From positions 7,076,655-7,140,654 of the forward strand of contig NC_134033.1 in assembly GCF_964204645.1 (NCBI RefSeq): a DNA stretch of 64,000 nt. The letters are read 5' to 3'. This document shows positions 8,559 to 33,289 of the stretch, piece after piece. Numbering within the stretch: the first letter of the stretch is position 1; every line of letters starts with the position of its first letter. The stretch is from Tubulanus polymorphus (Eukaryota > Animalia > Nemertea). Below the pieces are notes generated by a model. That model was not told the DNA's origin, made no database searches, and was given only the letters and a program-made list of their open reading frames with translations. The translations under genes and the position numbers were made by a program.

Positions 8559-8580
8559 TAATTTTTTTTTGCTAAATAAA

Positions 8581-9003: not shown

Positions 9004-9020
9004 ATTTTTTAATTATATAA

Positions 9021-10355: not shown

Positions 10356-11973
10356 ATGGATGAAGAAATTCCATTGGATCCTTTAGATGAACCCGGTATA
10401 AGTGATGAACAACAACCTGATTTTAGTGAAACAAGTTTTAGTAATGATAATAAAACAGAATATAATACTAATTTAGGTGAAGATGATGATTATGATGATG
10501 ATTCCGAATTACGTGAAAAATTATATAAATATTTAAAAGCTCCTGAAATTGGTAGAATTTAAACTAGAAGAGAAAGAAAAGAATTTATGGAACTATTAGT
10601 AGAACAACAAGAAAAATATCCTGATAAACATATGGAATTATATAAAATGAAATCTAGAGTAACAGATACAATTGTTTACGAATTATTACCAAAAGTTGTA
10701 ATACATGATATTGATACAGAAGGTGTTGTAGAACAAATTTTTAAAGATGACCCATATTTCACGAATAATTTAGAATTTAAAAATGATTCATGGTATTATA
10801 ATGTTAATTTAAATAACAAAATTGTATCAATTCAATTATCTAAAATGGGTCAAGAAAATATTTTTGAACCTGAAATGTTAGCAAGATCTACAATTGAACG
10901 TTCAAAAGGTGGCAAAGAATTTCTCAGAATTATATGGAATGCACTCGATAGAATAAATAAAGAAGAACCAATTCCTAATATTGATATAAACAAATATTCA
11001 CCATTTAAAAATCCATTTAAAAATCCAAATCCAAATCCTACTGATGTTGATCCAGAAACATCGAGAAGAGATATTCAACAAATTGATAATGATTCAATTA
11101 CAATTAGTATTAGAAGAACAAATTGATAGATTGAGAGATTCAGAAGAAGAGGTGAATAGTACTGGAATAAATCGAATGCAATCTTTACTAGAAAAAGGAT
11201 TACTTAATTTAACTGATGAAGAATTAGAAGCATTTCCTGAACAAATACGTAGAGAAATTAAAGGTATACAAGTATCAGCTGATGAAAATGCTAATATTAA
11301 GATGAGATTTTCTAAAATAACCATGTTAGAAAAAGAATTAGCTAATGCAGATGAAGAATTAAAACAATTAGAATTAAATAGAGATCTTATAGTAATTTAT
11401 AAAGCTGATTATGAAAGCGGAAAGTTAGCTTTAGTAAAAGAAATAGATGATTTAAAATATAATATAGAATTACAGAAAGAAGAAAGAGATACATTATTAA
11501 AATCATATGATCTTAATCACATTAAAAAATTAAAAGTTATTTTTAAAGATTTGTTGATTAAACCAAATTCTAAAATATCATTAAAAGACAGAATAAGATT
11601 ATTATTTAAGTTAGAAGGTATAACAATTCTTTCAATTCTAACATCTGTAACTATGGTATTAACAACAATTGGTTTAGCAATATCAAATGCTTTGAAATCT
11701 ACTCCTACTCCCAATAAACCGGATAAACCCCCAAATAATAATTCTATACAAGATAAAGTTAAAGATGGTTTAAAGAAATTAGCCAAATATTTATGGGAAC
11801 TATCTACAAAATCTGCTGCAGCATTGCCAGGAGTTATTGCATCAATTGTTGGTTTTATATTGAAATCTGCAGGAAACATTATTAACTTTGCTGCTGAACA
11901 TATTATTTTATTTTTAATTACAGTTGTAAGTGCAATTATTTTTGGGTTAGTAAACATGATAAAAAATAAATAA
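10356..11973 (+). pseudogene. Acidic/coiled-coil protein with C-terminal TM helices, A (disrupted)
   Basis: C-terminal ~145 aa near-identical to 28718-30253; split into three ORFs. Confidence 0.8.
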
Positions 11974-11993
11974 TTAATTTTTTTGTTAAATAA

Positions 11994-13238
11994 ATGAGTG
12001 GGAGTTATATCAATCCTTCTAAGAATCATAGAATATCTAATGCTATTAAAGCAGAAAGATCACATCATATAATTACTCATAACCCTTCTAATATTAATCC
12101 CGGTGAAACTTTATATGTTAGAATTCCGAGATTAACACAAAATACTTTTTACGTTCCAAATAGTATTTATTTATCAGCCGATATAAAAGTAATTGGTCAT
12201 GATAATAATTATGTTGTTGATAATGTTGGAAGATATTTGATTAAAAAATTAACAATAAAGTTTGGTCCAGAAACAGTTTTCTCATAAGATCATTATAATT
12301 TATTTATGCATTATAAAGATTTATGGTTAACTAAAGAAAACAGAAATAATATGATATTTCAAGGCATCCAATCAGAAAACCAAAATAAATTAAGATCAGG
12401 AGCTAATGACGCAATAGTAACTCGTACCGCAGATAATTTGATAAAAAAGATTTATGGAAGCAAATATAAAATTTCATTAGACTTTGAATTGATAAATAAT
12501 AATGCGCCTTTATATAAATACGCAATTCAAGAAGACGTTATATTCGAAATAACATTTGCTCCTGTAAATGAAATTGTATTATCTAGCGTTAATAAAGATA
12601 TGGGTTATAAATTATCGAATATATGTTTAGAATATGATACAGTTACTGATGAAAATATTTCAAGTATAATTCAAACTAAATACAATCAAGGATTTTCATT
12701 ATTATATGATTATATTGATAGATTTAAAACCGTAACTATTAATGCAAATGATGAAATTATTAATGAGAATATTAACTTCCCAAGAAGATCTATTAAAGGT
12801 ATATTAATATTTTTTACCATTGCAACATATACTAATGGCGCAATAAATGTTGATAATTATTATAATCCTGAAATAACAAAAATAGAAATAACTATCGAAG
12901 GAATAGCAAATAAAATATTTTGTCAAGGAATGAGAATGATTGATCATTGGCCAGAAATTAGAAAACATTTTATGAATGAAAAAGTGAAATCTGAAAATTG
13001 TAATATTAATCAAATTGATTATTATACCGGTAATAAATATGCATTATGGTTAGATTTTAGAACAACAGAGGATAATTCATTACATGGGTCTGGAAAAAAA
13101 TTATAGAACACTAAAGATGGAATACAATTATTCATGACAAAGAATAAAGGAATCAAAAATTTCAAAATGCACATTTATATTATATCTGACGCGCAATTAA
13201 ATATTGTAAATTCTCAATTAAATAGTGTTATGTATTAA
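11994..13238 (+). pseudogene. Major capsid protein candidate, A (two nonsense codons)
   Basis: Colinear with 30274-31521; stops at 12285-12287 (TTA to TAA) and 13104-13106 (CAG to TAG). Confidence 0.8.
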
Positions 13239-13270
13239 AATTTTAACTTAAATAAAAATATATATAATAA

Positions 13271-14002
13271 ATGGAAGGAGGTAAAGTATATAAACATATT
13301 CCATACATCGATACACATGAAAATAATGATGGTTTATATTATGTAATACCTTGTAATATAGCTTTGATATTTGATCCTATTTTCAAAATTTATAAAACTA
13401 AACTAATAGAAATCGATAATAATAAAAGTGGTGTTGTTGATAATTTAAGTAATGTAATTGATAATAATGTAATACCTTCTACATCTAATAATGTAATACC
13501 TACTACATCTAATAATGTAATACCTTCTACATCTAATAATGTAATACCTTCTACATCTAATAATGCAATAATATTAAATGTTAGTGAAAATAGAAATTAT
13601 TGTGATTATTGTAAAGGTGAATTTTCAAACGCTCCATCAAATTGGAATAAACATATGAATACAAGGGTACATATAAATAATGTTATAGAACGTGTTGGTT
13701 TAAAAGAATCTATAGAACACCCATTTAGATATGTTACAAAGTTTGTTTCAAATCAAAAAGTAAATGGTAAAGAATTATATAAAGATTTATTATTAGCAAC
13801 ACCTAATAAAGATGAATTAGATTTAACCGATGCTAATAAAATATTAGAATCAAACACTGTAAATGAAATATTAGGAGCAAACACTAATAAAGATAATAAT
13901 GAAAATGGTGCCGTATGGCACCCACATGGTGATATAGTTACAGGAAAGCGCATTGATAATAAAGATTCTATGATTCTATTCTATCAGAAAATAAAGATAT
14001 AG
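13271..14002 (+). CDS. A-specific protein with (NNVIPSTS)x4 repeat and a C2H2 finger; 3' end possibly frameshifted
   Basis: 24-bp tandem repeat ~13462-13565; CDYC-x13-H-x5-H. Confidence 0.65.
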   Translation: MEGGKVYKHIPYIDTHENNDGLYYVIPCNIALIFDPIFKIYKTKLIEIDNNKSGVVDNLSNVIDNNVIPSTSNNVIPTTSNNVIPSTSNNVIPSTSNNAIILNVSENRNYCDYCKGEFSNAPSNWNKHMNTRVHINNVIERVGLKESIEHPFRYVTKFVSNQKVNGKELYKDLLLATPNKDELDLTDANKILESNTVNEILGANTNKDNNENGAVWHPHGDIVTGKRIDNKDSMILFYQKIKI

Positions 14003-14152
14003 TTGAGATGACTAATAAGTATATCAATAAACCAATTATTTATGAAGATACGGTAGAGCATTTGAATAAATTGTTAGGGTCTGATGATGAATTGGAGAGT
14101 GATGATGAAAGTGATTCAGAAAGTAATTATCTAACACTCAAAAAGTAATAAA

Positions 14153-14500
14153 GGTTGAAAATTGGATAAAATAATAGTAAATAAAAAAGGGGGTTTTAAG
14201 TATTAAGGTACCTAATACGTATTTAATACATATCTAATACATATCTAATACGTTTTATTTGAAAATACCTTAAATTGTATTTCTTTTTTAAATTTATATT
14301 GAAACCTCAGTAATAATAAATAACCTTTATTATTTTCAAACTTATTCATATATTAGTTGAAAAAATAAAAATAAATTGGTTGAAAATTGTATAAATAATA
14401 TTTATTTTTAAAAAGGGGGTTTTAAGTAATTAAGGTATCTAATAGGGTATCAGGTATTAGGGTATCTAATATGGTATCTAATAGGGTATCTAATACATAG
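14153..14500. repeat. Duplicated non-coding cassette followed by short GGTATCTAATA-type repeats
   Basis: GGTTGAAAATTG...AAAAGGGGGTTTTAAGTA.TAAGGTA.CTAATA at ~14153-14218 and ~14378-14444, each followed by degenerate 11-12-mers. Confidence 0.75.
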
Positions 14501-14624
14501 GTATATTTTAAACATATTTCAATATTTATATTTGTATTTTATTGAAATAATTCATATATATTCATGAATAACATATAAATGAATAACTTCTAAAATCAAT
14601 TTAGTAAAAAAATATGTATAATAA

Positions 14625-15308
14625 ATGGAACCAGAACAACCACAAACTATAAATATTACAAATAATACTGGTGTCATAAACATATACTACAAGAAGTGTT
14701 CTAAATGTGAATTAGATAAATTAGCTTTAACAGAATTTAGTAAGCGTAAGATTAGCAAAGATGGTTTTCAATATTGCTGTAAAACTTGTACTAAACTATA
14801 TACCAAACAATATCGAGAGGATAATATAGAACATTATAATTATTATATGGCAGAATATATGAGAGAAAGATATAAAACAGATCTTAATTTTAGATTGAAA
14901 CAATGCTTAAGATCTAGATTAACACAATTATTCAACAAAGAAACACATTCAGAAACACTATCTAATTTATTGGGTTGTGAATTTTGTGGTAATGAATTTT
15001 TCATATCATGGATAATATATCAATTCGATGATAAAATGAATATAGATAATTATGGTGAATACTTTCATATTGATCATGTGTTGCCGATTTCTAAATTTGA
15101 CATGAATGATGAATACAATAAGAAGCTAATATGGAGCTGGAAAAATTTAAGACCTTTAGAAAAGAAGGAAAATATAATTAAATCTAATAAACTAGATATA
15201 CAGTTATATTTAGATCAACTGGATAAAGCAAAGACATTTGTTGAATTATGGAACTCAACACATAATGAAAAATACGTTGAGGAATTTGATATCAAGGATC
15301 CGAAATGA
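14625..15308 (+). CDS. HNH endonuclease of the type common in large DNA viruses (A-specific)
   Basis: N-terminal CxxC...KDG...CKxC; NYG..FHIDHVLP...NLRPL...N..KSNK. Confidence 0.8.
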   Translation: MEPEQPQTINITNNTGVINIYYKKCSKCELDKLALTEFSKRKISKDGFQYCCKTCTKLYTKQYREDNIEHYNYYMAEYMRERYKTDLNFRLKQCLRSRLTQLFNKETHSETLSNLLGCEFCGNEFFISWIIYQFDDKMNIDNYGEYFHIDHVLPISKFDMNDEYNKKLIWSWKNLRPLEKKENIIKSNKLDIQLYLDQLDKAKTFVELWNSTHNEKYVEEFDIKDPK

Positions 15309-15366
15309 CTTATCTGGACAGTTATAATTACTGCTCCTAATAGATAAACAAAAGTAGTGAGATATC
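15288..15366 (+). other. Conserved putative structured RNA/DNA element, copy in A
   Basis: Homologous to 34530-34604 on the minus strand, with compensatory stem changes. Confidence 0.55.
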
Positions 15367-15620
15367 AAATAGAATTCAAATAAAATATATTAAAAAAACA
15401 ATAACTTCAACTAGCCATTATTTCTATTTTAATTTTTGATATTTTCTTTTACAATTCTTTTCAAAAGAGAATACTTTATATCACAAATAAAAAATACTAA
15501 AAATACAATAACTAATACTAAAATTCTTTACCTTTAACTAAGCTAGTATTAATCTAAAGAGATACTGGTATCATTTGAAGAATACTTATAATATTTTTTT
15601 CGCTTTTTTCTCATATATAA

Positions 15621-16224
15621 ATGTCAAAGAAATCGAGTAAGAATAGTATTGATATTGAAAAGACATTAGATGATTTGGGTATAAGTGATAATAAAGATAC
15701 AGTTGTAACTAATTGTGCTCAAGTAAATTGTAATATTGATTATGAATACTATTTATATTGTAAGCATCATCTTCAATTATTAATTGCTGGCGGGAAATCT
15801 AAGGATTTCTTGGGAAAAATTTTAACTTATCATGAACTAGATGCTATGAAACCCGATAAAGTAATAAAACATTTTAAGATTTTATGAAGAGTCAAGATTA
15901 GCTAGAATAAATGATTCTATTTCAGATGGTATTGTCAAATGTTATTCTAAGTTATGTCACCAGTTAATACCAATTAATGATGAAAATAAATTATATAGTG
16001 ATTTGAAAAATGACTACTTAGTTATGACTGAATTACAAAAATGGGTTGGATATGCTTCATTTCAATTAGGATCGGTTATGACATTAATTTCTACTGGTGT
16101 CATAACATTTTCGAACATCAAGCCTATGGAATATAAATCAGGTAAGAACGAAACAGATGTACTACAACCAAACGTCGAAACAGAAAATGAATCAGGACAA
16201 AAATTAACTAAAATAAATGAGTGA
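15621..16224 (+). pseudogene. Homolog of the B 196-aa membrane protein (frameshifted)
   Basis: IEKTLDDLGI, YEYYLYCKH and LKNDYLVMTEL shared with 33594-34184. Confidence 0.8.
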
Positions 16225-16585
16225 TAGCGTTAAGAAGAAGCCTAGATCCGAGAAACAAATTAAATGGGCAAGAGAATTAGGTAAAAGATCTTCAGAATTA
16301 AAAAAAGCTAAGAAAAAGAAATTAACTGTTATAAATGAATCACAGAAATTATCTGATATTGATTCAAATAATAATCCATCTGATTCTTCTAATGCTGGAA
16401 GTAATTATAAATTATATATTACAATTGGATTAGTAACAGTTATTATATTATCCGGTGTAATATATAAATCAAAATTCAAATCTGATGATAAAGATGATTC
16501 CAATGATAATAAACCTATCATACCAGAAAATAAGTCAAATGATAAAGTCATTGAAAATAAACCAAGATTATTATTAATGGATTAA
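16217..16585 (+). CDS. Basic single-TM protein, A
   Basis: RS.KQI.W.R.LG motif and TM segment shared with 34132-34485. Confidence 0.75.
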   Translation: MSDSVKKKPRSEKQIKWARELGKRSSELKKAKKKKLTVINESQKLSDIDSNNNPSDSSNAGSNYKLYITIGLVTVIILSGVIYKSKFKSDDKDDSNDNKPIIPENKSNDKVIENKPRLLLMD

Positions 16586-16591
16586 AATAAG

Positions 16592-17605
16592 ATGAAAAAA
16601 GAACAATATTTTAGATATTTATATTATAACCCAGAAAGTGAAGTATCATATTCTAGCGTTTCAGAATTATGGGATAAAATTAAATCTGATAAAGAAAATG
16701 GTGCCGTACGGCACCCACACGGTGATATAAAATATAGTGAGTTAAAATCATGGTTACAAAATCAACCAACATATCAAATCCACAAGAAAATGGATGAAAC
16801 TTATTTAACAAGAAAAGTTATGGTTTCATATATCGATCAACAATGGCAAGCAGATTTAATTGACATGAAGAACTTAGAAGAATACAACAAAGGATATTTC
16901 TGGATATTATATGTTATAGAAATATTCAGTCGATACACATGGTCAATTCCAATCAAAAATAAAACTGGTATAGAAGTAACAAATGCTTTTAAATCTATAT
17001 TTAAAGAAGCAATTCCAGATAAGATACAATTTGATGAAGGTAAGGAATTTTATAACAAACATTTCAAAAAACTATTATCTGATAACGATGTAGATTATTT
17101 TTATAAAAAAGCATCTATTATAGAAAGATTTAATAAAACATTGAAAACTAGAATGTGGAAATATTTTACTGCTAATGAAACATATAAATATATCGATGTG
17201 TTAGATGATTTAGTGAAAGGTTATAATAATTCTAAACATAGTTATATAAACATGAAACCTATACAAAGTAAGAAAAGGAGATAATTCAGAAATAGTTTGG
17301 AATAATTTATATGGAGCGTTTGTTACACATGATTTCGGGGAACCTAAATTTAAAATTGGACAACACGTTAGAATATCTAAATATAGAAAAACATTTTATT
17401 AAGGTTATACCCCTAATTTTACAGAAGAAGTATTCAAGATTAAAAAGATAATATTAACTAAACCATTTGTTTATAAACTAGAAGATCTAAAAGATGAAGA
17501 AATATTAGGTTATTTCTATGAACAAGAATTATCACTTGTACCAAATCCAGATGAAATAGAATACAAAATAGAAAAAGTATTGAAAACAAAAACTCTTAAA
17601 GGAAT
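16592..17605 (+). pseudogene. Retroviral-like (rve) integrase, A; frameshifted, chromodomain truncated
   Basis: WQADLID, IQFDEGKEF, IIERFNKT catalytic D-D-E; a deletion fuses its end to the ATPase start. Confidence 0.9.
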
Positions 17606-18208
17606 AAAGATTTATTTATATTTGAACCGCATAATATGTTAGTTACTGGTGTAACCAATTGTGGAACACATTTCATATTAGATTTGTTAGAAACTATTTA
17701 TAAGAATCATTTTGATAATATAATATTATTCTGTCCTACTTATGAAATGAATAAAACATATAATAGAGATATAGTTAAGATAAAAAAGTTTATTATATTA
17801 AATCCTAAAACAGTAAAAGAAAATTTAGATAATTGTATAAAAATAGCAATTGATACTTATAAAGGATCAAATACATTATTCATTATGGATGATTGCGCTA
17901 ATTTACATGATTCAAAAGTGAGAGAAAGTGAGTTATGTTATCTAGCTTTCTCTGGAAGACATTTTGGGATAACAACATGGGTTTTAAATCAAAAATATAA
18001 TTCAATTGTTAAAGACTTTAGGGAGAATATAAGATTTCTAGTTTTATTTTATAACAAAGATAGAAAATCTATGCAACAATCATTGGAAGAAAATCAAATT
18101 ATACCTACTGAATTACATGATGAATATATGAATAAATTAAGGAATAATAAAGGTTCAAAATTATTACTGAGACTACAATTTCCCTATGAATATAAGTTTA
18201 TAAAATAA
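17603..18208 (+). pseudogene. A32/FtsK-HerA-type packaging ATPase, A; Walker A lysine missing
   Basis: GVTNCG-TH (B has GVTNCGKT), FIMDD, SGRH. Confidence 0.85.
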
Positions 18209-18239
18209 CTATTTATATATCTATTCTATAAGAGCTTAC

Positions 18240-18468
18240 ACTTTTATATTGAATAATCTGTCAATTTAAATGTTATTCATATACATGATTATTTTAAGAG
18301 TAATAGGGATAATAGGCTTTCAGGTTAAAGGTTGAATGGTCGAGTTCATTAAAAACAAAACATGAAAAGTAATTTAAAACTATAATATATTTTCATAACC
18401 GTGTGTATTTCAGTTGAATAATAGAATAATAATTATTATTAAAATATATTTGATTATATGAATTTGTG
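18240..18468. repeat. Inner part of the right TIR of element A
   Basis: Reverse complement of ~1970-2198 with few mismatches. Confidence 0.92.
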
Positions 18469-18640
18469 AGTAATTAGAAGATGGCGTTTTCAGATCAGAG
18501 GACGAGAGGACGAGACACCGCTCATCACCACAAGTAATTTTTTTTCCTAATAAATGGGGGAGAATGAACACCAACTAGAAAAACATAATGTCAATAAAAA
18601 TCAATATTATTGTCAATATTGTAAAAAATACATCGATACA
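18469..18640. repeat. Left TIR of element B, running into the pPolB 5' end
   Basis: Reverse complement of ~35147-35316; first ~75 bp essentially identical. Confidence 0.9.
18521..18556 (+). promoter_or_regulatory. 36-bp leader CTCATCACCACAAGTAAT(n)CCTAATAAATG, copy 1 of 4 (pPolB)
   Basis: Also on the minus strand at 24916-24951, 34959-34994 and 35229-35264, always ending in a start codon. Confidence 0.8.
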
Positions 18641-21600
18641 TCTAATAAAACACGACATGAAAAAACTGCAAATCATATAAAAAATGTAATAGATTTTGAA
18701 ACTCCAGAAAATTCCAATGAAAGAAAAGAACGATTAGAAAATATGAATGTGGATGAAATAAAATGTGAAGTTTGTAACGAATTTATAGTAAAAAGGAATT
18801 ATAATAGACATCTCGAATCACAAAAACATTATAAAAATTTAAATAAAAATGTTTTAGGATTAGAATATTTTGATAATAAACCTCAACAAGTAAAAGAATC
18901 AACTTCAAAAACAAAATCCATTTCAAATAAACCTTACATGGAAAATGTTAGAAATTATATTGATTCACTAGAAATAAAAGATACAATTGAAATTTTAGAA
19001 ACATTACATAGTAAAATTGGTCCTGCAGCTATTATATTTAGATTTTTTAAAGGTACAACAATAGAAGATTATAGTAAATTTAATGAAATAATAGAAAAAA
19101 TACTAGATTTTATAACAGATGTTGAATATCCAAAAATTAGTATCTCTGGGAAAGTAAGTTTTATAAAGTCAGAAGAAAAAATGGATTATAATATTCAAAC
19201 ACACTCTGAAGAAATAATTTCAAAAACACAAATAAAAGAGAAGTTAGAAAAAATATTAAATGAATTTAAACGTCATATTGAAGAAAGATATTTTGAGGGT
19301 TCTGGCTTAACATTGAATGAAATTATATATTTAGATTTAAATGTTTATAATACAAAAAGAAATAAAACATCAAAAAGTAATAAAATGTTTAAAAATAATT
19401 CAAACTTTATAATAGAAAAAGATATGAAAGCATCAAGTTATATTAAATTACCATTTTTATCAAAAGCAATTATAAATGTTAAAAATGAAGACAACAAATG
19501 TTTTCTGTGGGCAATTATTAGTTGCTTACATCCATCACAGGAAAATGTTTGTAGAATAACAGATTATCGGAAATATGAAACATTATATAAAATTGATCAA
19601 TATCCAGTAACTATAAAAATGATTCCTAAAATAGAAAAAGTTAATAATTTAAAAATAAATGTATTCGAATTAATGCAATTACCAAAGACAAAAGGTGAAA
19701 ATATTAAAGATTATACATTGGAAGCTTTATATTTAACAGAATATTATGATGATGAAAATGCTTTAGATTTGTTATATTACAAAAAAGATGAAAATGAACA
19801 TTATATGTGGTTAAAACAAATTGATTTATTCTTTAGAACAGAAAGTGATTTTAACAGCCATAAAATTTATCTATGTAGAAAATGTTTATCTAAATTTAGA
19901 ACTGAGAATACATTATTAAAACATAAAGAATTATGTGATAATAAAGATTTTTGTAAATTAATAATGCCAACAGAAAAAGATTATAAATTGAAATTTACTA
20001 ATCATAAATTTAAAAATATTGTTCCATTTGTAATTTATGGGGATTTTGAATCATTGAATAAAGAATTAACTGATCAAGATAGAAAAGAAATATATAACAA
20101 AAAGCAATTATTAAAATCAATGGATAAAGGAAGTGAATTAAATGAAGACATAATTCAAGACCCACCAATTATAAATACAATTAAAAAAGTTCATCAAAGA
20201 GCTGCTGCTTATGGAATTTATATAAAATCAAATTATCCTGAATTATATGAAAGTCAATATATTTCTTTTAGAGGTGAAAATGTAGTTAATGATTTTTGTG
20301 ATAAAATTATTGAATTAGAAAGTGATTTTGCAAAATTATTAAACAAAAATAAAAGAATAGTTATGACAAAAGAAGATGAAATTGATTTTAATTATGCAAC
20401 TCATTGTTGTTATTGTGAAAAACGTTTTTATTCATTTGATAAAAGAGTTAGAGATCATGATCATTTAAATTCAAAATATCGTGGAGCTGCTCATGAAGAT
20501 TGTAATTTACAAGCTAAAAAAGTAAATTTCGTACCAATATTATTTCATAATTTATCAGGATATGATACCCATCTATTTATAAAACAATTATCGGGAAAAT
20601 TGGGCGCAATTAATCAAGAAATAGAAGAATATAATGCTATGAATGAAGCAAATGTAAGAAAATATGATTTTAAACTATTAGCTAAAACATCTGAAAATTA
20701 TATTTCATTTCAATTTGGTTGCATTAGATTTTTAGATTCTTATAGATTTCTAGCAAGTTCATTAGATAATTCATCAAAATCATTAGTTGATAATGATTTT
20801 GTTATAACTCGATATCATTATCCAAATGACCAAGATTTTAAATTATTAAGATATAAAGGCGCAATTCCTTATTCATTTTATAAAACACATGATGATTTTA
20901 ATGTAACAGAATTATTAAAAGATCAATTTTATGATAAATTAAAAGAGGAGTATGTGAAAGACGAAGTTTTTAATAGAACATTAAATATTTGGAACCATTT
21001 TAAGATGAAAAATCATGGTGAATTAGTTGATTTATATTTAAAATCAGATGTTATGATATTGGCTGACATATTTGAAAAGTTTAGAGAAGTTAATCTAAAC
21101 CATTTTAATGTTGATCCTTGTTATTGCTACTCTAGTCCTGGTTTAACCTGGCAATGTGGTTTAAAATATACAAATGTAGAATTAGATTTATTAAAAGAAC
21201 CAGATATGGTTTTATTATTTGAAAAATCAATTAGAGGTGGAATTAGTGGTGTTATGGGAGATAGGTATTTTAAAGCAAATGATGAATATAAATTATTATA
21301 TATTGACGCCAATAATTTATATGGTTGGGCAATGATGCAACCTCAACCATATAAAAATTTTATATTAACAGAAGTTGAAAGTGATGATAAAACTAATTGG
21401 GAAAGCGCAATTATGAGTTTAGAAGATGAAGCACCAATTGGTTATTTCTTTGTAGTTGATTTAGAATATCCTGAAAATATAAAGTTTAAAACAAGAAACT
21501 TACCTTATTGCCCAGAACATTTAACTGTAGATGATAGTTATTTAAGTGAATACCAGAAGAAAATAAAACCGAAAGATCATGTTTTTACAGAAAAATTAAT

Positions 21601-23620
21601 ACTTACTCAAAATAATAAATACAATTATATTGTTCATTATAGAATGTTAAAATTTTATCTAAAACAAGGAATGAAATTAAAGAAAGTACATAGATATATT
21701 GAATTTAATCAATCGAAGTGATTAGAAAAATATATAGATTTCAATACTCAACAGAGAACAATATCAAAAAATGATTTTGAGAAGGATTTTTTTAAGTTAA
21801 TGAACAATGCATTTTATGGTAAGACTTGTGAAAACATAAGAAATAGAAATGATATTGAGTTAGTAAATGATTATGAACGATTGAGACACCTACAATCAAG
21901 TCCTAGACATTTAGGAAATAAAAGATTTGAGGATTATTTGACCGCGGTAAAATTAAAAAGAACGTCAATGAAATTTAATAAACCCATTTTCATAGGTTCA
22001 ACCGTTTTAGAAGGTTCAAAATTACTAATGTATAATTTTTATTATAATGTTTTGCAACCACTTTTTGGGGAAAAACACATAGAAATTCTATACTTCGATT
22101 CTGTAACAGCTGACACCCCAATATTATTAAAATGTAATAATAAAATATTGGTAAGAAGAATTTCAGAAATAATTCCAAAACAAAATGAATGTTATATTTT
22201 ATATGGTGAAAAAGAATTAATACAAATAAATGGATTAATGGATGTTTGGACAAGAAATGGATGGAAAAAATTAAATAATATTATTAGACATAAAACAAAT
22301 AAGAAAATCTATAGAGTTAGAACTAAATTAGGATTTGTAGATGTTACAGAAGATCATAGTTTAATTAAACAAAATGGTGATGAAATAAAACCAACTGATA
22401 TAAAAATTGGAGATGAATTATTACATAAAAGATTTTACCCAAGAATGAATCATATGTCATTTGATGAAATAATTGATAATATTTATAATATAGAACCCGA
22501 AACATTGGAAGAAAAAGAATATTTTATCAAAGGATTTTTCATGGGTGATGGTTCAGCAGGTGTGTATAATTATGTTAGTGGAACTAAATATTGTTGGTAT
22601 TTATGCAATCAAGACTTAAAATTATTAGAAAGAATTAAGAAATTCTGTGAAGAAGTTTATCCAAATAAAACATTTAGAATCATGGATGTTATGAAATCAT
22701 CAGCAGTTTATAGAATACTTGTAAATAATCCTAAAGATTTTGCTATAGAATATAATGATGAATTCTATATTCATGCAATAGTGAAAAGTAATACTTCGAC
22801 AAAAGAAAAGATAGTTCCAGATTATGTATTGAATGCAAAAAATAATTTAAGAAAATGGTTCTTCATTGGATTCTACGCAGCCGATGGTACTAAAAGTTTC
22901 AAAAACCGCAAAACAATATCTTTAGCTCAAAAAGGAAAAGTTGCTATATCAGGATTAAATATATTATGCAATTCATTAGGTTTTAATATGAATATTGGAT
23001 TGAATAAATCTAAACCAAATTGCTTTAATTTAAGCCATGTAGAAAATGAGTTAACTGAAGAAGTTAAAGATTTATTTGAAATATATAACCCATCAGATTA
23101 TGTTTATGATTTATCAACTGAAGATGGTACATTTAACTGTGGATTTCCATTAATAGCCAAAAATACTGACGCCTACATACTAAAAATCAAGACAAATGAC
23201 ATAACAAAAGACTTAAAAACATTGAAACATCATTTTGATTTTAGTAACTATCCAAAAAATCATGAACTATTTAGCAATGATAATAAAAAGATTCCTGGTA
23301 AGTTTAAAGATGAATTAGGAGGTGATGAAATGATTGAATTTGTTGGGATAAGAAGTAAAATGTATAGTTACAGAACAAAAGATCATGAAGCTAAAAAGTT
23401 AAAAGGAATAACAAAACATGTGGTTGATAAACATATAGAATTTCAAGATTATATAAAGTGTTTATATAAATCAATTGTAATGAAACACAAAATGAATTGT
23501 TTAAGATCAGAAGATCATGAGATGTACATTAATGAAGTTGAAAAAACTAGTTTAAATCCATTTGATGATAAAAGGCATATTTTAGATGATGGTATTAAAA
23601 CATTACCTTATGGCCATTAA
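18554..23620 (+). pseudogene. pPolB: Protein-primed family B DNA polymerase of B, intein-containing, with one in-frame TGA at 21719-21721
   Basis: All Exo and Pol motifs present; 18554-21721 and 21800-23620 share a frame; the TGA replaces W of QSKWLEKY in A. Confidence 0.95.
22100..23164 (+). mobile_element. Intein (355 aa) with LAGLIDADG homing endonuclease in PolB motif C
   Basis: YFD|SVTADTP...VTEDH...GFFMGDG...GFYAADG...VYDLSTEDGTF...AKN|TDAY; A has uninterrupted YFDTDSY; open frame throughout. Confidence 0.95.
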
Positions 23621-24918
23621 AACATAAAATCAATATCATCATACTCGAAATCACTATTGTCTTCTTCATTTTCATTTAATTGTTTAGGTTCTTCTTCCAC
23701 TCCATTTTTCTCATTTAAATAAAGTTCTATCTTGTTCCACATTTCATCTCGCTCTCTTTGTTTCTTTTTGTTTGTTAATTCATCAAATGGAATTATAATA
23801 TCTAGGTTTAAATAATTTACAATCTTATTTAAAAAGAATTCATAATTTATTGAATCTGTTATTCTATTTTCCAAATGATACATTAATATTTGTTTGAATA
23901 TTTTTTTTATATTTTTCATATCTTCTTCTGTTAATTTAGGTTTTTCATAATAATCGTTAAATAATAAATATAAATACATTTTCTTTTCTTTTGTGTTAAA
24001 TGTTGGTGGAATAACTGTTTTTATAATATCTTTTTTAGTTATTTCACCATTTTTATTTTCTATTATTTTCATTTTTTCAAGCCATTGCATATATTCTGGT
24101 GTATGATCTTCTATAGAAAATATTTTAAAAATTTCATCAAGATAATTTAATTTTGGATCTATAAGAAAATTTCTAGTTTTTTCTTCATCCCATAAATTCT
24201 TTTGCCATCCACAATCAACACAAAATAACACAGTACCTTCTTGTCTTAAGGTCGCATAACTACATTGTGGACATTTTCGTTTATAATTTATTGGTAATAG
24301 ATCTTCATTAAGCTCTTGGTATTTTCTTACGTTTTCTTTATGTTTTATTGTTCTATTATGTAGATTTGAATTACTTGTTGTAATAATCAATTTACAATAT
24401 TTACAATAATATGTTTTTCTTGTTAATTCATTATATTGTTTTTCTAACTTTTCAACTGTTTCTTCATTATCTGGTAACGTTTTCTCATATTTTATTTTTT
24501 CTAATAAATTATTTTTTCTTTCATTGAATTCAGTTTCAAATTTATTAGAAATTTTATCTATATGTGCTTTACGAAATTGATGATTCTCCCAATCTTCTTT
24601 ATTATCAGGACAAAATCTTATTCGACAATGCTCACATAAATTATTCTTTACATTATTCTTGTCATAAAATAAAAAAGGTCTTTTCCAAATAACTTCAGGT
24701 TCAACTTCAGCAGAATTACTATCAACATTAGCCGTTGCGCCATTAATTCTAGACTTCTCTGAATGTTTTTTAACATAATTTCTTGAGAATAATTTATTAC
24801 ATTTTGGACAGTTTATTTTAGGGGGTTTATAATTTTCATTATGTTTTTTCATATGTCGAGCCATATTACTTTTTCTTAGAAGTTCACCACAAATTTCACA
24901 TGGTATCTTCTCGTCCAT
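23617..24918 (-). CDS. Multi-C2H2-finger protein fused to a poxvirus A2/VLTF-3-like late transcription factor domain (B-specific)
   Basis: CPQC-x13-CVDC ribbon, then NFLIDPKLNYL, IFKQ...EN...INYEFFLNKI, DEMWNKI; matches vaccinia A2 as I recall it. Confidence 0.72.
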   Translation of the reverse strand: MDEKIPCEICGELLRKSNMARHMKKHNENYKPPKINCPKCNKLFSRNYVKKHSEKSRINGATANVDSNSAEVEPEVIWKRPFLFYDKNNVKNNLCEHCRIRFCPDNKEDWENHQFRKAHIDKISNKFETEFNERKNNLLEKIKYEKTLPDNEETVEKLEKQYNELTRKTYYCKYCKLIITTSNSNLHNRTIKHKENVRKYQELNEDLLPINYKRKCPQCSYATLRQEGTVLFCVDCGWQKNLWDEEKTRNFLIDPKLNYLDEIFKIFSIEDHTPEYMQWLEKMKIIENKNGEITKKDIIKTVIPPTFNTKEKKMYLYLLFNDYYEKPKLTEEDMKNIKKIFKQILMYHLENRITDSINYEFFLNKIVNYLNLDIIIPFDELTNKKKQRERDEMWNKIELYLNEKNGVEEEPKQLNENEEDNSDFEYDDIDFMF

Positions 24919-24951
24919 TTATTAGGGAAAAAAATTACTTGTGGTGATGAG
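24916..24951 (-). promoter_or_regulatory. 36-bp leader, copy 2 (VLTF-3-like gene)
   Basis: Near-exact copy of 18521-18556. Confidence 0.8.
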
Positions 24952-24975
24952 TGTAATTTTTTTATGTTATAAATA

Positions 24976-25773
24976 ATGGTAGAATTAAAAGAATACAGAA
25001 TATTTGTTGATTCTAGAAAACTTATAAATTATAAATCTCATAATTTATTAGTACAATTAGATAGAGAATTTAAGAATTGTGTAGATTTAAAATTAGTAAA
25101 TATAAGTTTATGTAATTCTTTTTATAATATATCGGATAAAACTGATGAACATAGAAGCCTTCTTATTTTTGATAAACTTGAAAAAAAATGGATTCAACTT
25201 ATGCTTACACCAGGATTATATGATTTAGAAACATTAGAGCAAGAAATTAATAGAAAAGCTCGGATTAGATTAGGTAATGGTAATTGTAAATTTAATATTA
25301 AATTCATAAAAAGTGAGAGCTCTAATAAAATTAAAATAAAGCTTGATGATGAACTTATTAAACTTGATAAATCTAATCCATTGATGACAAGAAGACATAC
25401 TTACACAGCAAAAAAACCTATAGCTAAACTATTAGGAATTACTCCAAATCAATTTGGTGGAAACAAACACGGTAACTCAAATATAATACCTTTTACACAC
25501 TTTTATATTTATTGCAATTTAATCGATCCTACAAAAACTTTCGAAGCAACTAAAGATACAACATGTAATTCTAGTATATTAAACATTTTACCATTGAAGA
25601 ATGTTAAACAATTTGGAACGCAAATAAATTATAATTTAGCTGAATGTGATTTTAAACCTTGCATTCCTCATTTTAATAATTTTAGATTAGAAATTAGAAA
25701 TCATAATGGATACTTAATTGATTTAAATAACTTTCCTGTGATATATGAATTAGTTATAAGATGTAGAGAGTAA
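24976..25773 (+). CDS. Minor capsid (penton-like) protein candidate, B
   Basis: Same motifs as 6776-7501; divergent central part. Confidence 0.65.
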   Translation: MVELKEYRIFVDSRKLINYKSHNLLVQLDREFKNCVDLKLVNISLCNSFYNISDKTDEHRSLLIFDKLEKKWIQLMLTPGLYDLETLEQEINRKARIRLGNGNCKFNIKFIKSESSNKIKIKLDDELIKLDKSNPLMTRRHTYTAKKPIAKLLGITPNQFGGNKHGNSNIIPFTHFYIYCNLIDPTKTFEATKDTTCNSSILNILPLKNVKQFGTQINYNLAECDFKPCIPHFNNFRLEIRNHNGYLIDLNNFPVIYELVIRCRE

Positions 25774-25789
25774 TTTTTTCATTATATAA

Positions 25790-26146
25790 ATGAATATAAC
25801 TGTTGGACCGAGTATATGTTTTGGATTTGATTTTAAACATGGTAAAGAAATGAAATTTAACATTAATGATGTAATAACACATATCAAAAATGTTGTATTT
25901 TCTAATGAAACAACATTTGAGTATGAAACAACAATTGATAAAGAAACTTTAAATGTAGAAAAGATTACTAATTTAATTAGAGAATCTTTAAGATTTTATG
26001 AATTAGATGAAGATTTTATCATCGATGATATTAAAAAAATAATAATTGAAATATATACAAATGAAACTAGTAATAAAATAAATGTTGAATTAATCATCAC
26101 TAAGTTAACTAAATATTTTGATGATAGTAATTTTTTTGATAAATAA
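25790..26146 (+). CDS. Conserved hypothetical protein, B
   Basis: ORF with a homolog in A and TAAATG start. Confidence 0.8.
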   Translation: MNITVGPSICFGFDFKHGKEMKFNINDVITHIKNVVFSNETTFEYETTIDKETLNVEKITNLIRESLRFYELDEDFIIDDIKKIIIEIYTNETSNKINVELIITKLTKYFDDSNFFDK

Positions 26147-26368
26147 ATGAGTGATAATAAGTGGATAATAACTGGATTATATAATGGAGCATTACTATCA
26201 GTTGGAACTGTTGGTTATTCAATGGTATTAAAAAAAGTATTCAAAATGGGAAGTGTTAATGTTGATAGATTTGATATCAATGATATTTTAAAGTTAACGT
26301 TAGCAGTTACTTTATCTAATTTAACTATTGATTATTTGGAAAAACAAAAATATATTCCTCCCATATAA
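26147..26368 (+). CDS. Small hydrophobic or membrane protein, B
   Basis: ORF with a homolog in A; two hydrophobic stretches. Confidence 0.78.
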   Translation: MSDNKWIITGLYNGALLSVGTVGYSMVLKKVFKMGSVNVDRFDINDILKLTLAVTLSNLTIDYLEKQKYIPPI

Positions 26369-26392
26369 ATGCATAATTTTTTTGCTAAATAA

Positions 26393-26815
26393 ATGGCTTC
26401 TGCAATTATAACTATTATAGGATCAGCAATTGTTAACGCTTTAGCATTTACTGGTGGTGGATATTTATTTAAACATATTGATAAAAATAGTTCATTAGGA
26501 GAACAAAGAAGACATAACTTAGCGTTAGAGAAATATAATAAAGATGCAGAAGAATATAGAGAAAAGAGACAAAACTATATGGATTACATCAATAAAGAAT
26601 TATATGATCAGAAGATTTCACATAGAGATTTTCAATCAGTTGATGATGCAATGAGTTTATATAACGCAGTAACAAATAAAGAAAAATTACATCTATACAA
26701 ACCTAAATTATCAGATTATTATACCCCAAGTAAAGAACAACAGAAATATGAAATAATATGGATTTTAGGTGGAACTGTTATTGTTATATTTGTTGCTTAT
26801 AAGTTTACTAATTAG
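26393..26815 (+). CDS. Membrane protein, B
   Basis: Hydrophobic N- and C-termini around a coiled region; homolog in A. Confidence 0.8.
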   Translation: MASAIITIIGSAIVNALAFTGGGYLFKHIDKNSSLGEQRRHNLALEKYNKDAEEYREKRQNYMDYINKELYDQKISHRDFQSVDDAMSLYNAVTNKEKLHLYKPKLSDYYTPSKEQQKYEIIWILGGTVIVIFVAYKFTN

Positions 26816-26834
26816 TAATTTTTATTCTAAATAA

Positions 26835-27269
26835 ATGGAAGATAAAGTTGATAGTATTGATATTATTCCTCATGATATAAATAAAACTAAATTAAAAACA
26901 TATTTAGAAAAACAAATATTAGAATTTGAAAGTGACTTAAAGATAAAAAAGAAAAAATATCTAAAAAGTAAAATTATATATTATCTTATTATTAGTGGTT
27001 CGGTTACAATTAGTTCTGTAATAACATTTCTAGCAATATTCAGTCCATTAACACCTTTAGCTATATCAATTGGTGTGTTAGGATTAAGTTCAAGTGTTTT
27101 AACTGGTATAAGTTCAAAATTAAATATAAAAAGTAATAAAGAAAAAATGAAAACTAATATAAAAGAAATTAATAAATTAAAGAACACACTAGATTATATA
27201 ATAAGTTTAAATGGTCATATAACAGTTGAAGAACAAGATAAATTATTAAAAGAATTAATAAATTATTAA
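26835..27269 (+). CDS. Two-TM protein, B
   Basis: Central hydrophobic hairpin flanked by basic helices. Confidence 0.8.
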   Translation: MEDKVDSIDIIPHDINKTKLKTYLEKQILEFESDLKIKKKKYLKSKIIYYLIISGSVTISSVITFLAIFSPLTPLAISIGVLGLSSSVLTGISSKLNIKSNKEKMKTNIKEINKLKNTLDYIISLNGHITVEEQDKLLKELINY

Positions 27270-27285
27270 TTTTTTAATTATATAA

Positions 27286-28701
27286 ATGGCAGATAGTTTT
27301 CCAAAAGCTTTCCAATACAATAAATCAATTAAATATAATATTCCAGCAATAGATTTTAATAAAGATATTACATATAGAAATGAAGTTTTAGATTCATTAA
27401 CTAATTTAGAAATTTATGTTACTGAAACTAATAATTTTAATGCAAAGATGGAAAATATATTTCATGTATATTTAATTAATTTTAAAAAATTGAAAGATGA
27501 AAAACAATGGTTATTAAAATCTAATATGAAGTATTGGCAGAATCAATTAAATTTTGCTGTTTATTGTGCAACAACAGGATGTGGAATTAGTTGGAATGAT
27601 CATTTGAATAATTCTAAATATAAACTAATTCAAAGTTTATTTAGATTTCATACATACTTTCAAATCAGAATAATATTAAATGAATTAGAGTGCGCTTTAC
27701 CAGGATCTAGATATTTTAAAGAATTAGATAATAATATTAATTTATCTAAGTTTTATAAAATTTGTAATGAATTTAATATAGATATAAATAATTCTGATTT
27801 TAGAACAAAAATTGGAACAATAAGATCACTTCCTTGCCCTAGAAAGATTGCAGAATATTGTGCACTTCCCATACCATCTAATAGTTTTTATAATATCTAT
27901 AATAAAAAATTAGGTTATGGTAAAATAGAAACAAACGATTTAGAAACATTAAATTTCAATAAATTACCGAAATTTTATGATCATTTAAAACAAGAAAACA
28001 ATAATGGTTGGGTTTATTTTATTTTAGAAAATAGTGAAGGTTTTACTAAATCAGGTATAGAAAGAATAAATCAATCTATTAGAACTTATTTGATTTGTAT
28101 TCTAGGATCACAAGTTGAAACAAGATCCCCAATAATTGGAAATTTAAATACATCATTTGATACACAAAAACAATTTAAAGTTTTATTTGAAGATTCAATT
28201 CATAATGATAAAAATAGATCGATTCCAGAAAACATTATAAGATATCAAAATTATTTAGATAAATCTCATGTAAGACTTAATTATTGTATAGGCCCTAATC
28301 TATTAATTATTTCTAATGATTTAGTATTAAAGATGGGAAATATAATTGGTTATAATAATCTAATTAAAACTGCAACAATAAATAATTCATTTGGATTGAA
28401 TGATATAAATAAAAAGATTATTACTGCTCCAAAATTAATGGAAGGTGAAAAAAATAAAAAACACATTCAATCAACTGAAACTAAAACTAAGAATATTAAA
28501 TTAAATAATGATTCTAAAATAAAAGATTATAATACATCAGAAAATAATAGAACTGATAATGGTGCCATATGGCACCCACACGGTGATATTCAACATGATG
28601 TAATTAAACTAAATGATGATAATAAATTCCATGAAAATACTAAATTAGCTATAACTTGTATAGGAATTGTTATAGGAGGAATATTATATTTTAAATTTTA
28701 A
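27286..28701 (+). CDS. C-terminally anchored putative virion protein, B
   Basis: 471-aa ORF, QNQLNFAVYCATTGCGIS motif, C-terminal TM; homolog in A. Confidence 0.8.
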   Translation: MADSFPKAFQYNKSIKYNIPAIDFNKDITYRNEVLDSLTNLEIYVTETNNFNAKMENIFHVYLINFKKLKDEKQWLLKSNMKYWQNQLNFAVYCATTGCGISWNDHLNNSKYKLIQSLFRFHTYFQIRIILNELECALPGSRYFKELDNNINLSKFYKICNEFNIDINNSDFRTKIGTIRSLPCPRKIAEYCALPIPSNSFYNIYNKKLGYGKIETNDLETLNFNKLPKFYDHLKQENNNGWVYFILENSEGFTKSGIERINQSIRTYLICILGSQVETRSPIIGNLNTSFDTQKQFKVLFEDSIHNDKNRSIPENIIRYQNYLDKSHVRLNYCIGPNLLIISNDLVLKMGNIIGYNNLIKTATINNSFGLNDINKKIITAPKLMEGEKNKKHIQSTETKTKNIKLNNDSKIKDYNTSENNRTDNGAIWHPHGDIQHDVIKLNDDNKFHENTKLAITCIGIVIGGILYFKF

Positions 28702-28717
28702 TTTTTTTATTATATAA

Positions 28718-30253
28718 ATGGATGTAGAAGGTGTAGAAGATATTGGAATGGATCCTTTTGATGAACCTGGTATAACTGATGAACAACCACCTGATTTTGA
28801 TGAAACAAGTTTTAATGATGGTAATGAACCAGAATATAACAATAATTTAAATATGCCTGATTATATTAAAAATGCTGAATCACAATTAAATCCTGAAAAT
28901 TTAGACCCAGATTTAGTAAAACAAGATTTAGATAATTTAAACAAAATACCTAAATTAGAAGATTTAATTGAAAAATCTAATTTTAACATAAATGATGAAG
29001 ACGTTGGACTTTTAGCAGATCAATTAAAATTTTTAGATAATGGTAAATGTTATTATCGTTTGAAAGGTGATTATTATATTGATATCACTTATAAAAATAA
29101 TAAAAATAAAATATTATCAGAATCAACTTTAGAAAAATTAAAACCAGATAGAATTAAAATAATAAGTAATAGTAATGAAATAACTGATGTTACACAAAAA
29201 GAAATAGATGATAATATAGATGTATTTAAACAAAGAATTAATGAATTATTTGAAATAATCAAAAAGAAATCAGAAACAGAAATGGAAGAGAATAGAGATA
29301 AATTAAGATCTTCAACACCCGAAACATCGAGAAGAGACACTCAACAAATTGATAATGATTTAAGTCAATCACAATTAGAAAAACGTTTAGATAACTTACT
29401 GAATAAAACTTCCAAAACTAGTAAACTTAAATCAAATAAAGTTCTAATTGAAAAACTTTTACCGAATGGATTACTTGATGCAACAGATCAAGAATTAGAA
29501 GATTTAGATATATTTTCTGATAAAGCAATTAGAGAAATTATTAGTATAAGACTTGCATCTGATAAAATTGCGCATAATAAAAGTATAAGAGATCAAAAAA
29601 TTACGTATTTGGAAAAAGAATTAACTGATAAAAATAAAGAAATAGAACAACTAAAGTCTGATTTAGATCATCAAGTAATTGATGAAATAGAATATAGGCA
29701 AAAAGAATTACGTTTAGAAAAAGAAATTAGTAATTTAAAAGATAATTTAGAAGTACAGAAAGAAGAAATTAAATTATTGTTAAAATCATATGATTATAAT
29801 ATTAATAGATTAAAAGTTATTTTTAAAGATTTGTTGATTAAACCAAATTCTGACATATCACTAAAAGATAGAATAAGATTATTATTTAAATTAGAAGGAA
29901 TAACAATTCTTTCAATTCTAACATCTGTAACTATGTTATTTACAACAATTGGTTTAGCTATATCAAATGCTTTGAAATCTACTCCTACTCCCAATAAACC
30001 AGATAAACCTCCAGGAAATAATTCTATACAAGATAAAGTTAAGGATGGTTTAAAGAAATTAGCAAAATATTTATGGGAACTATCTAAAAAATCTGCTGCA
30101 GCTTTACCAGGAGTTATTGCTTCAATTGTTGGTTTTATATTGAAATCTGCAGGAAACATTATTAACTTTGCTGCTGAACATATTATTTTATTTTTAATTA
30201 CAGTTGTAAGTGCTATTATTTTTGGGTTAGTGAATATGATTAAAAATAAATAA
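28718..30253 (+). CDS. Acidic/coiled-coil protein with C-terminal TM helices, B
   Basis: 511-aa ORF with heptad-rich middle and 2-3 hydrophobic helices. Confidence 0.8.
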   Translation: MDVEGVEDIGMDPFDEPGITDEQPPDFDETSFNDGNEPEYNNNLNMPDYIKNAESQLNPENLDPDLVKQDLDNLNKIPKLEDLIEKSNFNINDEDVGLLADQLKFLDNGKCYYRLKGDYYIDITYKNNKNKILSESTLEKLKPDRIKIISNSNEITDVTQKEIDDNIDVFKQRINELFEIIKKKSETEMEENRDKLRSSTPETSRRDTQQIDNDLSQSQLEKRLDNLLNKTSKTSKLKSNKVLIEKLLPNGLLDATDQELEDLDIFSDKAIREIISIRLASDKIAHNKSIRDQKITYLEKELTDKNKEIEQLKSDLDHQVIDEIEYRQKELRLEKEISNLKDNLEVQKEEIKLLLKSYDYNINRLKVIFKDLLIKPNSDISLKDRIRLLFKLEGITILSILTSVTMLFTTIGLAISNALKSTPTPNKPDKPPGNNSIQDKVKDGLKKLAKYLWELSKKSAAALPGVIASIVGFILKSAGNIINFAAEHIILFLITVVSAIIFGLVNMIKNK

Positions 30254-30273
30254 TTAATTTTTTTGTTTAATAA

Positions 30274-31521
30274 ATGAGTGGGAGTTATATAAGTCCTTCT
30301 AAGATTTCTAGAATATCTAATGCTATTAAAGCAGAAAGATCACATCATATAATTACTCATAACCCTTCAAATATTAATCCTGATGAAACTTTATATGTTA
30401 GAATCCCTCAATTAACACAAAATACTTTTTATGTTCCAAACAGTATTTATTTATCAGCTGATATAAAAGTAATCGGTAATAATAATAATTATGTCGTTGA
30501 TAATGTTGGAAGATATTTGATTAAAAAGTTAACAATAAAGATTGGTCCAGAAACAGTTTTCTCATTAGATGATTATAATTTATTTATGCATTATAAAGAT
30601 TTATGGTTAACTAAAGAAAATAGAAATAATATGATATTTCAAGGCATCCAATCAGAAAACCAAAATAAATTAAGATCAGAAGCTAATAACGCAATATTAA
30701 CAAATGATGTAGATAAATTGATAAAAAGTATATATGGAAGCAAATATAAAATTCCATTAGACTTTGAATTGATAAATAATAATGCACCTTTATATAAATA
30801 CGCAATTCAAGAAGATATTATATTTGAGATAACATTTGCTCCTGTAAATGAAATTGTATTATCTAGCGTTGTTAAAGATATGAGTTATAAATTATCGAAT
30901 ATATGTTTAGAATATGATACAGTAACTGATGAAAATATTGCTAGCACAATTCAAACTCAATACAATCAAGGATTTTCATTATTATATGATTATATTGATA
31001 AATTTAAAACTGTAACTATTAATGCAAATGATGAAATAATAAATGAGAATATTAACTTCCCAAGAAGATCTATTAAAGGTATATTAATATTTTTTACCAT
31101 TGGAACGTATACTAATGGTGCAATAAATGTTGATAATTATTATAATCCTGAAATAACAAAAGTAGAAATAACTATCGAAGGAATAGCAAATAAAATATTT
31201 TGTCAAGGAATGAGAATGATAGATCAATGGGTAGAAATTAAAAAACATTTTATGAATGAAAAAGTAAAATCATTTGAAAATTGTAACATTAATCAAATTG
31301 ATTATTATACCGGTAATAAATATGCATTATGGTTAGATTTTAGAACAACTGAAGATAATTCATTACATGGTTCTGGAAAAAAACTACAGAACACTAAAGA
31401 TGGAATACAATTATTTATGAAAAAGAAAAAGGGAATCAAAAATTTTAAAATGCATATTTATATTATATCTGATGCGCAATTAAATATTATAAATTCACAA
31501 TTAGATAGTATTCAATATTAG
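30274..31521 (+). CDS. Major capsid protein candidate (double jelly-roll expected), B
   Basis: 415 aa, beta-rich, highly conserved between A and B, size and position as expected; fold not verified. Confidence 0.75.
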   Translation: MSGSYISPSKISRISNAIKAERSHHIITHNPSNINPDETLYVRIPQLTQNTFYVPNSIYLSADIKVIGNNNNYVVDNVGRYLIKKLTIKIGPETVFSLDDYNLFMHYKDLWLTKENRNNMIFQGIQSENQNKLRSEANNAILTNDVDKLIKSIYGSKYKIPLDFELINNNAPLYKYAIQEDIIFEITFAPVNEIVLSSVVKDMSYKLSNICLEYDTVTDENIASTIQTQYNQGFSLLYDYIDKFKTVTINANDEIINENINFPRRSIKGILIFFTIGTYTNGAINVDNYYNPEITKVEITIEGIANKIFCQGMRMIDQWVEIKKHFMNEKVKSFENCNINQIDYYTGNKYALWLDFRTTEDNSLHGSGKKLQNTKDGIQLFMKKKKGIKNFKMHIYIISDAQLNIINSQLDSIQY

Positions 31522-31551
31522 AAATATAAAGTTAAAATTAAGGATATATAA

Positions 31552-33288: not shown

Positions 33289-33289
33289 A

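Follow-up and report, generated by a model that had tools for sequence, protein, structure and literature searches.

The locus and its GC-rich insertions

The window analysed here is a stretch of 64,000 nucleotides from the nemertean Tubulanus polymorphus (RefSeq assembly GCF_964204645.1, contig NC_134033.1, positions 7,076,655 to 7,140,654, forward strand), and all coordinates count from its first base. It contains a composite Maverick/Polinton, made of two units called A and B, in which a GC-rich motif of 27 bp (the 27-mer) is inserted in three unrelated genes. The features that matter first are the following.

1740..35557, + strand: composite Maverick/Polinton insertion, with ends AGTAATAG...CTATTACT and a 6-bp target duplication, CGAAGG
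about 2140-18298: unit A of the composite
about 18299-35557: unit B of the composite
13907..13933, + strand: copy of the 27-mer at site 1, near the C-terminus of a zinc-finger-like open reading frame (ORF; 13271-14002), with two CpG>TpG changes
16700..16726, + strand: copy at site 2, in the variable N-terminal loop of the A integrase, in the all-CpG form
28561..28587, + strand: copy at site 3, near the C-terminus of the B 471-aa protein, with two CpG changes

Pfam finds rve integrases and Pox_A32 (A32-like) ATPases in the composite; the label pPolB for the polymerase ORFs is not a Pfam hit and comes from the look of their translations. Among the integrase homologs, those with a named source are from Branchiostoma, Paramuricea and Trichonephila, which makes an animal host likely. 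Units A and B are 71-91% identical in the blocks that they share.

A first-pass annotation of this DNA had described three insertions with a common peptide, and both observations stand. The motif matches exactly at the three positions, always on the + strand; the window holds no further match at up to three mismatches, and none of 100 shuffled sequences contains any match. All three copies are read in phase 0, as GA(V/I)(W/R)HPHGD. The copies are also the only GC-rich hairpins (stem of at least 6 bp with at least 5 G/C) within 1740-35557, where the region of about 2-35 kb has a GC content of 21-27%. The 27-mer folds into a hairpin with a 6-bp stem, abutted by a second one with a 3-bp stem, and both hairpins also form when it is folded as a circle. 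Its ends are direct GGTG repeats (AYGGTG when the flank is counted) and not inverted repeats.

The differences between the copies had been taken for compensatory variants that preserve a palindrome. However, the copies vary only where the 16700 copy has its three CpGs, and all changes are CpG>TpG/CpA, so that they need not be compensatory. Across the three copies 4 of 9 CpGs are changed, as against 0 of 63 other positions, and CpG is hypermutable between A and B (transitions at 33 of 72 aligned CpG dinucleotides versus 77 of 374 GC/CC/GG); CpG decay thus explains the pattern better than compensation, which finds no support. In reads, the 40 rows listed contain a single substitution within the motif, C>T at 16720 (125/485, a total that seems to include gapped reads). 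The three CpG changes in the main hairpin all fall in the loop, including one that replaces R by W, while a synonymous change in the stem is not seen; with n=3 this hints only weakly at conservation of the stem.

Filled, empty and remnant alleles

The state of each site in other copies was followed in four runs of one study (X1-X4) and in raw reads of a second study (X5), all with the same species label. About 12% of X5 was read; X1-X4 may be the source of the window itself, so only X5 is independent. Loose read ends were positioned on the window by eye and allele counts are taken from the rows listed. Four further positions enter the picture.

10230..10234, cut 10232/10233, + strand: empty ortholog of site 3 in A, by alignment; also empty in a related locus (L009)
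16355..16359, cut 16357/16358, + strand: site 4, in ORF 16217-16585, empty in the window, filled in other copies
10215..10219, cut 10217/10218, + strand: site 5, 15 bp from site 3, empty in the window, filled in other copies
15361..15365, cut 15363/15364, + strand: site 6, non-coding, empty in the window, filled in other copies

The A ortholog of the 471-aa gene had been proposed as an empty site, and its alignment with B confirms that it lacks exactly these 27 bp. Moreover, the reads supply the further filled/empty polymorphisms whose absence would have spoken against a mobile element. At the integrase (site 2), 17 reads represent a truly empty allele without the 27 bp, and 76 reads with 44 start places represent a remnant allele that has lost 21 bp and retains six bases. 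Flank depth there is about 310-350, from which, by simple arithmetic, most reads seem to carry the full motif. Slippage between the two AYGGTG repeats that surround the hairpin would yield the 21-bp-shorter allele; no such 6-bp remnant was found among the A/B indels in the window.

Site 4 is documented by junction reads on both sides (left 36+20, right 54+3) and by a 460-nt X4 contig that covers both junctions; two sub-lineages, distinguished by a 9-bp difference upstream, carry the insertion. Joints ending at 16698, considered as deletions beside the motif, are assigned to site 4 by the reads. At site 5, the loose ends comprise 68 reads before the motif and 38 behind it. Thirteen reads (8+3+2) connect two motif copies over the 15 bp between sites 5 and 3, and some molecules are filled at both. 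At site 6 the left junction alone is clear; an X2 contig shows it, as does an X5 row of loose ends with 74 reads. The 27-mer-filled allele is the minority at sites 1 and 3-6.

Some irregular forms also occur in the region 16696-16714, where 20 X5 reads and one X2 contig carry 6-base additions at the left edge of the motif and one X1 contig carries a rearranged double motif.

Distribution of the motif

One could suspect a piece of some widespread host repeat, or an artefact of adapters or assembly. This explanation is largely refuted and we hold it to be highly improbable. Although reads were accepted with as few as about 31 matching bases, depth is 374-394 over the motif and the same, 365-407, in the flanks, without a spike. 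Roughly all extra motif reads are explained by the known Maverick sites; the 27-mer is not a high-copy host repeat, with room for a few host copies. Host DNA makes up 30 kb of the window and contains no copy, and all sites that could be placed lie in Mavericks. The motif is present in raw X5 reads of the second study as well as in contigs of X1, X2 and X4, and its variants are of the CpG type. What speaks for an artefact is that the loose-end row of site 6 is mixed (agreement 0.67) and that loose ends were counted among the rows listed.

The peptide is absent among the listed homologs of the 471-aa protein (120 of 167) and of the integrase (120 of 270). At the insertion point the integrase homologs have a loop whose length varies; the closest ones listed have three residues, where A has three plus nine. 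The motif is also missing from B's own integrase and from 15 of 15 related Maverick loci in metagenomes (68 kb, up to ~80% nucleotide identity), in which the orthologous sites are empty wherever they align. For the site-1 protein, 1447 candidates yielded no homolog, and three related loci (L002, L003 and L005) align to it only up to about residue 174. Given the empty orthologs, the homologs without the peptide and the related loci without a copy, the insertion is, by sequence comparison, derived and lineage-specific. That it is a real mobile insertion we regard as very probable, and filled alleles have probably been amplified by working Maverick lineages.

Wider searches gave no relative. The full motif has no match in a viral contig collection (as an R/Y-degenerate pattern), where no related Maverick loci were found either, and none in metagenome and prokaryote genome contigs (as a CpG-degenerate pattern). 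Half motifs hit 4 and 3 phage-like loci among the viral contigs and a 19-mer hit 10 GC-rich prokaryote genomes once each, without continuation of the motif in either case. A blastn search of phages returned 19 partial matches (best E=0.5), and an Rfam scan of 13500-17200 one chance match (E=0.23). In the literature searched, mostly open-access and without supplements, no report of such an element in Mavericks was found.

Target, strand and reading phase

The insertions obey a sharp rule. RAT|AT is the target, and the insert length is fixed, at 6 of 6 sites; five sites share the same exact 27 bp between unrelated flanks. AT by itself is common, and only 13% of the AT dinucleotides in the element are followed by a second AT. 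The first-pass annotation had given AAT before and AT after every copy: the latter holds, while the former does not extend to sites 4 and 6, which have GAT.

It had also suggested a 25-bp unit with a duplicated AT. The sequence is compatible with this, but it is identical to, and indistinguishable from, 27 bp inserted without duplication. Such a duplication recalls ISL2EU, a family of DDE transposons that generate 2-bp AT duplications, and the 27-mer might be an extreme miniature inverted-repeat transposable element (MITE) of this kind with a 25-bp core. Formally there are 25 bp between AT and AT, and the first 16 bp resemble two joined terminal repeats. However, the core is bounded by GGTG in direct and not inverted orientation, which excludes a normal DDE MITE, the duplication would sit off-centre in the ATAT target, and polarity is fixed. 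We give such a derivation a slim chance.

The polarity is that of the genes, with 6 of 6 insertions on the same, sense strand. Each of the five coding sites is read in sense phase 0 (P=0.003, from target counts in 31 ORFs; P=0.011 if sites 3 and 5 are taken as one, and 0.01-0.11 with longer target contexts chosen post hoc). Just one of the six strand/phase classes of the motif creates a stop, the other five frames being open. The coding sites lie in stretches rich in N/D/E/K or in the length-variable loop, and selection probably favours loops that tolerate an insertion and a peptide that is polar.

This one-sidedness would also suit a functional cis signal or a tolerated peptide kept by the virus, be it an RNA hairpin, a protein-binding site or a packaging site. 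One strand and one phase despite five open frames, the apparent majority of the filled allele at the integrase site and the invariance of the non-CpG positions all fit. However, a binding or packaging signal, which the first-pass annotation had raised, becomes less likely since the motif is missing in the B integrase, at most sites in the majority of copies, and in every related Maverick examined, as it is in the 240 listed homologs. The minority status at sites 1 and 3-6 and the amplification of a stem-less remnant at the integrase also argue against it, and a signal still needs a mechanism of insertion. We consider it improbable.

Comparison with other hairpin elements

Anatomically, the nearest described kind is that of the mitochondrial GC clusters and hairpin elements, although the host of the 27-mer is an endogenous DNA virus. 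Yeast GC clusters (GC42), the repetitive hairpin elements (RHEs) of sponges and the double-hairpin elements (DHEs) of Allomyces are likewise short GC-rich hairpins in AT-rich DNA, have a 2-3-bp flanking direct repeat, show presence/absence polymorphism and, as the 27-mer, are tolerated inside genes (PMC4478555, PMC2800124). The likeness to GC clusters that had been noted earlier holds for the anatomy (PMC4478555); as to location, all placed sites are in Mavericks and not in mitochondrial DNA. Unlike GC clusters and RHEs, the 27-mer resides in a nuclear viral genome, is shorter (27 bp) and has one polarity, one reading phase and a RAT|AT target.

Other comparisons concern palindromes. Rickettsia palindromic elements (RPEs) are palindromic insertions that leave ORFs open, and are much longer than 27 bp. 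Bacterial repetitive extragenic palindromic (REP) sequences, which come in many copies per prokaryote genome, combine a GTGG head with a palindrome, and the minus strand of the 27-mer reads GTGG followed by a GC palindrome. Membership of the REP family was rejected, with no full motif match in prokaryote genomes and ten unrelated singletons for the 19-mer. A spliceosomal micro-intron (GT...AG) was likewise rejected, the 27-mer having no AG on its sense strand, and the terminal inverted repeats of a DDE MITE are replaced by direct repeats.

Rolling-circle elements, too, share features with the 27-mer. Helitron2 has a 5' T, a hairpin at its 5' terminus and a repeat directly upstream of its 3' hairpin (PMC3627910). 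Read as inserted between A and T, the 27-mer has a 5' T, then a terminal hairpin with a 6-bp stem within 0-2 nt of the end. Its second hairpin arm lies just before the small 3' hairpin, and, as with Helitron2-like elements, there is no clear duplication (PMC3627910, PMC5148889, PMC11417382). The order is the same and the dimensions are not: where Helitron2 has asymmetric terminal inverted repeats (ATIRs) of 8-15 bp, the 3' one 20-30 bp from the end, the arm of the 27-mer has 6 bp and lies 10 nt from the end, and, unlike in Helitron2, a single repeat doubles as hairpin arm and ATIR. Helitron2 inserts at T|T and the 27-mer at RAT|AT; the described exception, FoHeli1/2, inserts between TNAT and A, a similar target, and has 5' hairpins with short stems (PMC5148889). 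The non-autonomous copies described for Helitron2-like elements measure 657-830 bp (PMC3627910, PMC5148889, PMC11417382).

As for Helitron1, which inserts at A|T, all six sites can be read RA|TAT, formally the same as a 2-bp AT duplication. The + strand begins with TG in place of TC and its hairpin lies 10 nt from a GTGA end; the minus strand does begin with TC, but a single A follows the hairpin, and neither strand has CTRR. By strict definition (PMC11417382) the 27-mer is not a Helitron, given the missing CTRR, the short repeats, the missing TT target and the lack of a HUH gene among the window ORFs scanned.

Replitrons are known from algae, plants and protists and measure about 0.9-3.6 kb; they are marked by short direct repeats at their ends, a hairpin and orientation-specific insertion with variable duplications (PMC10288648). 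The 27-mer has GGTG at both ends and the same polarity at 6 of 6 sites, and inserts, as Replitrons do, behind a short purine-containing target (PMC10288648). A further difference is that no transposase was found among the window ORFs scanned.

How the 27-mer may spread

The movement of very short hairpin elements such as GC clusters, RHEs and RPEs is a long-standing open question. The 27-mer follows a sharp target rule and has fixed ends, it occurs naturally in filled, empty and remnant form, and the host offers many copies to count, all of which renders the mechanism testable. The motif itself is real and well delimited; among mechanisms we rank first, at a probability of about 0.42, that it is a minimal non-coding rolling-circle element (HUH-type, Helitron2/Replitron-like) which uses a borrowed transposase.

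According to this scheme, a borrowed HUH-type enzyme would copy the 27-mer as single-stranded DNA into RA|TAT sites. The boundaries would be RA|TGGTG...GGTGA|TAT, in which the 3' junction and the target represent the same kind of A|T nick site. A unit of 27 bp is too small to form a double-stranded loop or to hold two DDE ends. It may have originated from a longer element that collapsed between a hairpin arm and a subterminal repeat, and its insertions may go into the strands displaced during protein-primed Maverick replication. Survival would be confined to indel-tolerant loops and to the single frame that yields a polar G/P/D peptide, followed by amplification alongside the virus and CpG decay; the 21-bp loss would be a later slippage product.

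Several observations weigh against rolling-circle copying. No RepHel/HUH gene was recovered among 53 ORF queries (Pfam 26+13, PHROGs 14 overlapping), and a host Helitron should strike host DNA too, yet the copies are found mainly in Mavericks. The Helitron CTRR end, the 8-15-bp ATIRs, their 20-30-bp spacing and the TT target are all missing, the stem of the second hairpin has just 3 bp, and the 5/5 phase-0 bias is not accounted for by an enzyme and requires selection. Moreover, the motif-free allele at site 1 lacks 33 bp, that is the 27 bp and the next six, and not 27 (15 X5 reads and contigs in X1-X3, among the joints listed). By analogy, this allele might reflect the "fuzzy" extra bases of Replitrons (PMC10288648).

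The main rival dispenses with a transposase and lets nucleases and recombination spread the unit, as has been proposed for yeast GC clusters (PMC4478555). The hairpin would form a cruciform or stall a polymerase, a Maverick nuclease would cut, and the unit would then be copied from one co-replicating genome to another, by repair or by template switching at AT microhomologies. This accounts for its confinement to the virus, and candidate nucleases are at hand: an endonuclease VII-like ORF in A, an Endonuclease_7 domain in the A polymerase ORF and a LAGLIDADG intein in B.

14625..15308, + strand: endonuclease VII-like ORF of A (phrog_1035, E=9e-18), candidate nuclease for this route

In the case of the yeast clusters, the proposed nucleases are intron endonucleases (PMC4478555). 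The irregular alleles (21-bp loss, 33-bp loss, 6-bp additions) fit as well. However, copying driven by repair predicts variable ends and carried flanks, whereas five sites show the exact 27 bp between unrelated flanks that have just AT in common, and we judge this route rather unlikely.

Rolling-circle copying, if retained, admits a bolder version in which the 27-nt single-stranded dumbbell is a complete transposable unit, specialised on the displaced strands of replicating Mavericks. We find this doubtful. If true, it would be a codon-sized hyperparasite of an animal DNA virus that adds the same nonapeptide to unrelated viral proteins, far below the size of the rolling-circle elements described in the sources cited above. 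The "tiny parasite of the parasite" of the first-pass annotation gains support from the further filled/empty polymorphisms and from the lack of a common host repeat: Mavericks carry mobile micro-parasites of their own.

Architecture of the composite and its flank

Units A and B together make up one insertion, with just one 6-bp duplication. Its left end consists of an imperfect fold-back of 400 bp, and unit A is bordered by terminal repeats that face outwards and have 5-bp spacers, which resembles a concatemer or the product of a strand switch (1740-2201, 18237-18638 and 35147-35557). Within A, 14450-14630 resembles the left end of A, and 422 X5 reads link 14585 to 18264 on opposite strands, which indicates that other copies begin at 14450-14630. 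Many genes of A (2671-18208) are broken by stops or frameshifts when compared with B, namely the polymerase, the homologs of the 471-aa, 511-aa and 415-aa proteins and the integrase. The B polymerase is also divided between two ORFs; its intein, with the LAGLIDADG domain, occupies 22100-23163 (in ORF 21800-23620) and has no counterpart in the A polymerase.

On both strands, several ORFs are preceded by a motif of 41-44 bp that may be a promoter or 5' leader (18521-18564, 24908-24951, 34951-34994 and 35221-35264). The host flank (35558-64000) is rich in transposons and shows no CpG depletion, with an observed/expected ratio of 1.15 versus 0.54-0.63 in the Mavericks. It harbours reverse transcriptase fragments of a long interspersed nuclear element (LINE; 41030-41815), a Gypsy element (44256-48801), an OTU plus Mutator-like (MULE-like) element (57943-61558) and tandem repeats of ~385 and ~405 bp.

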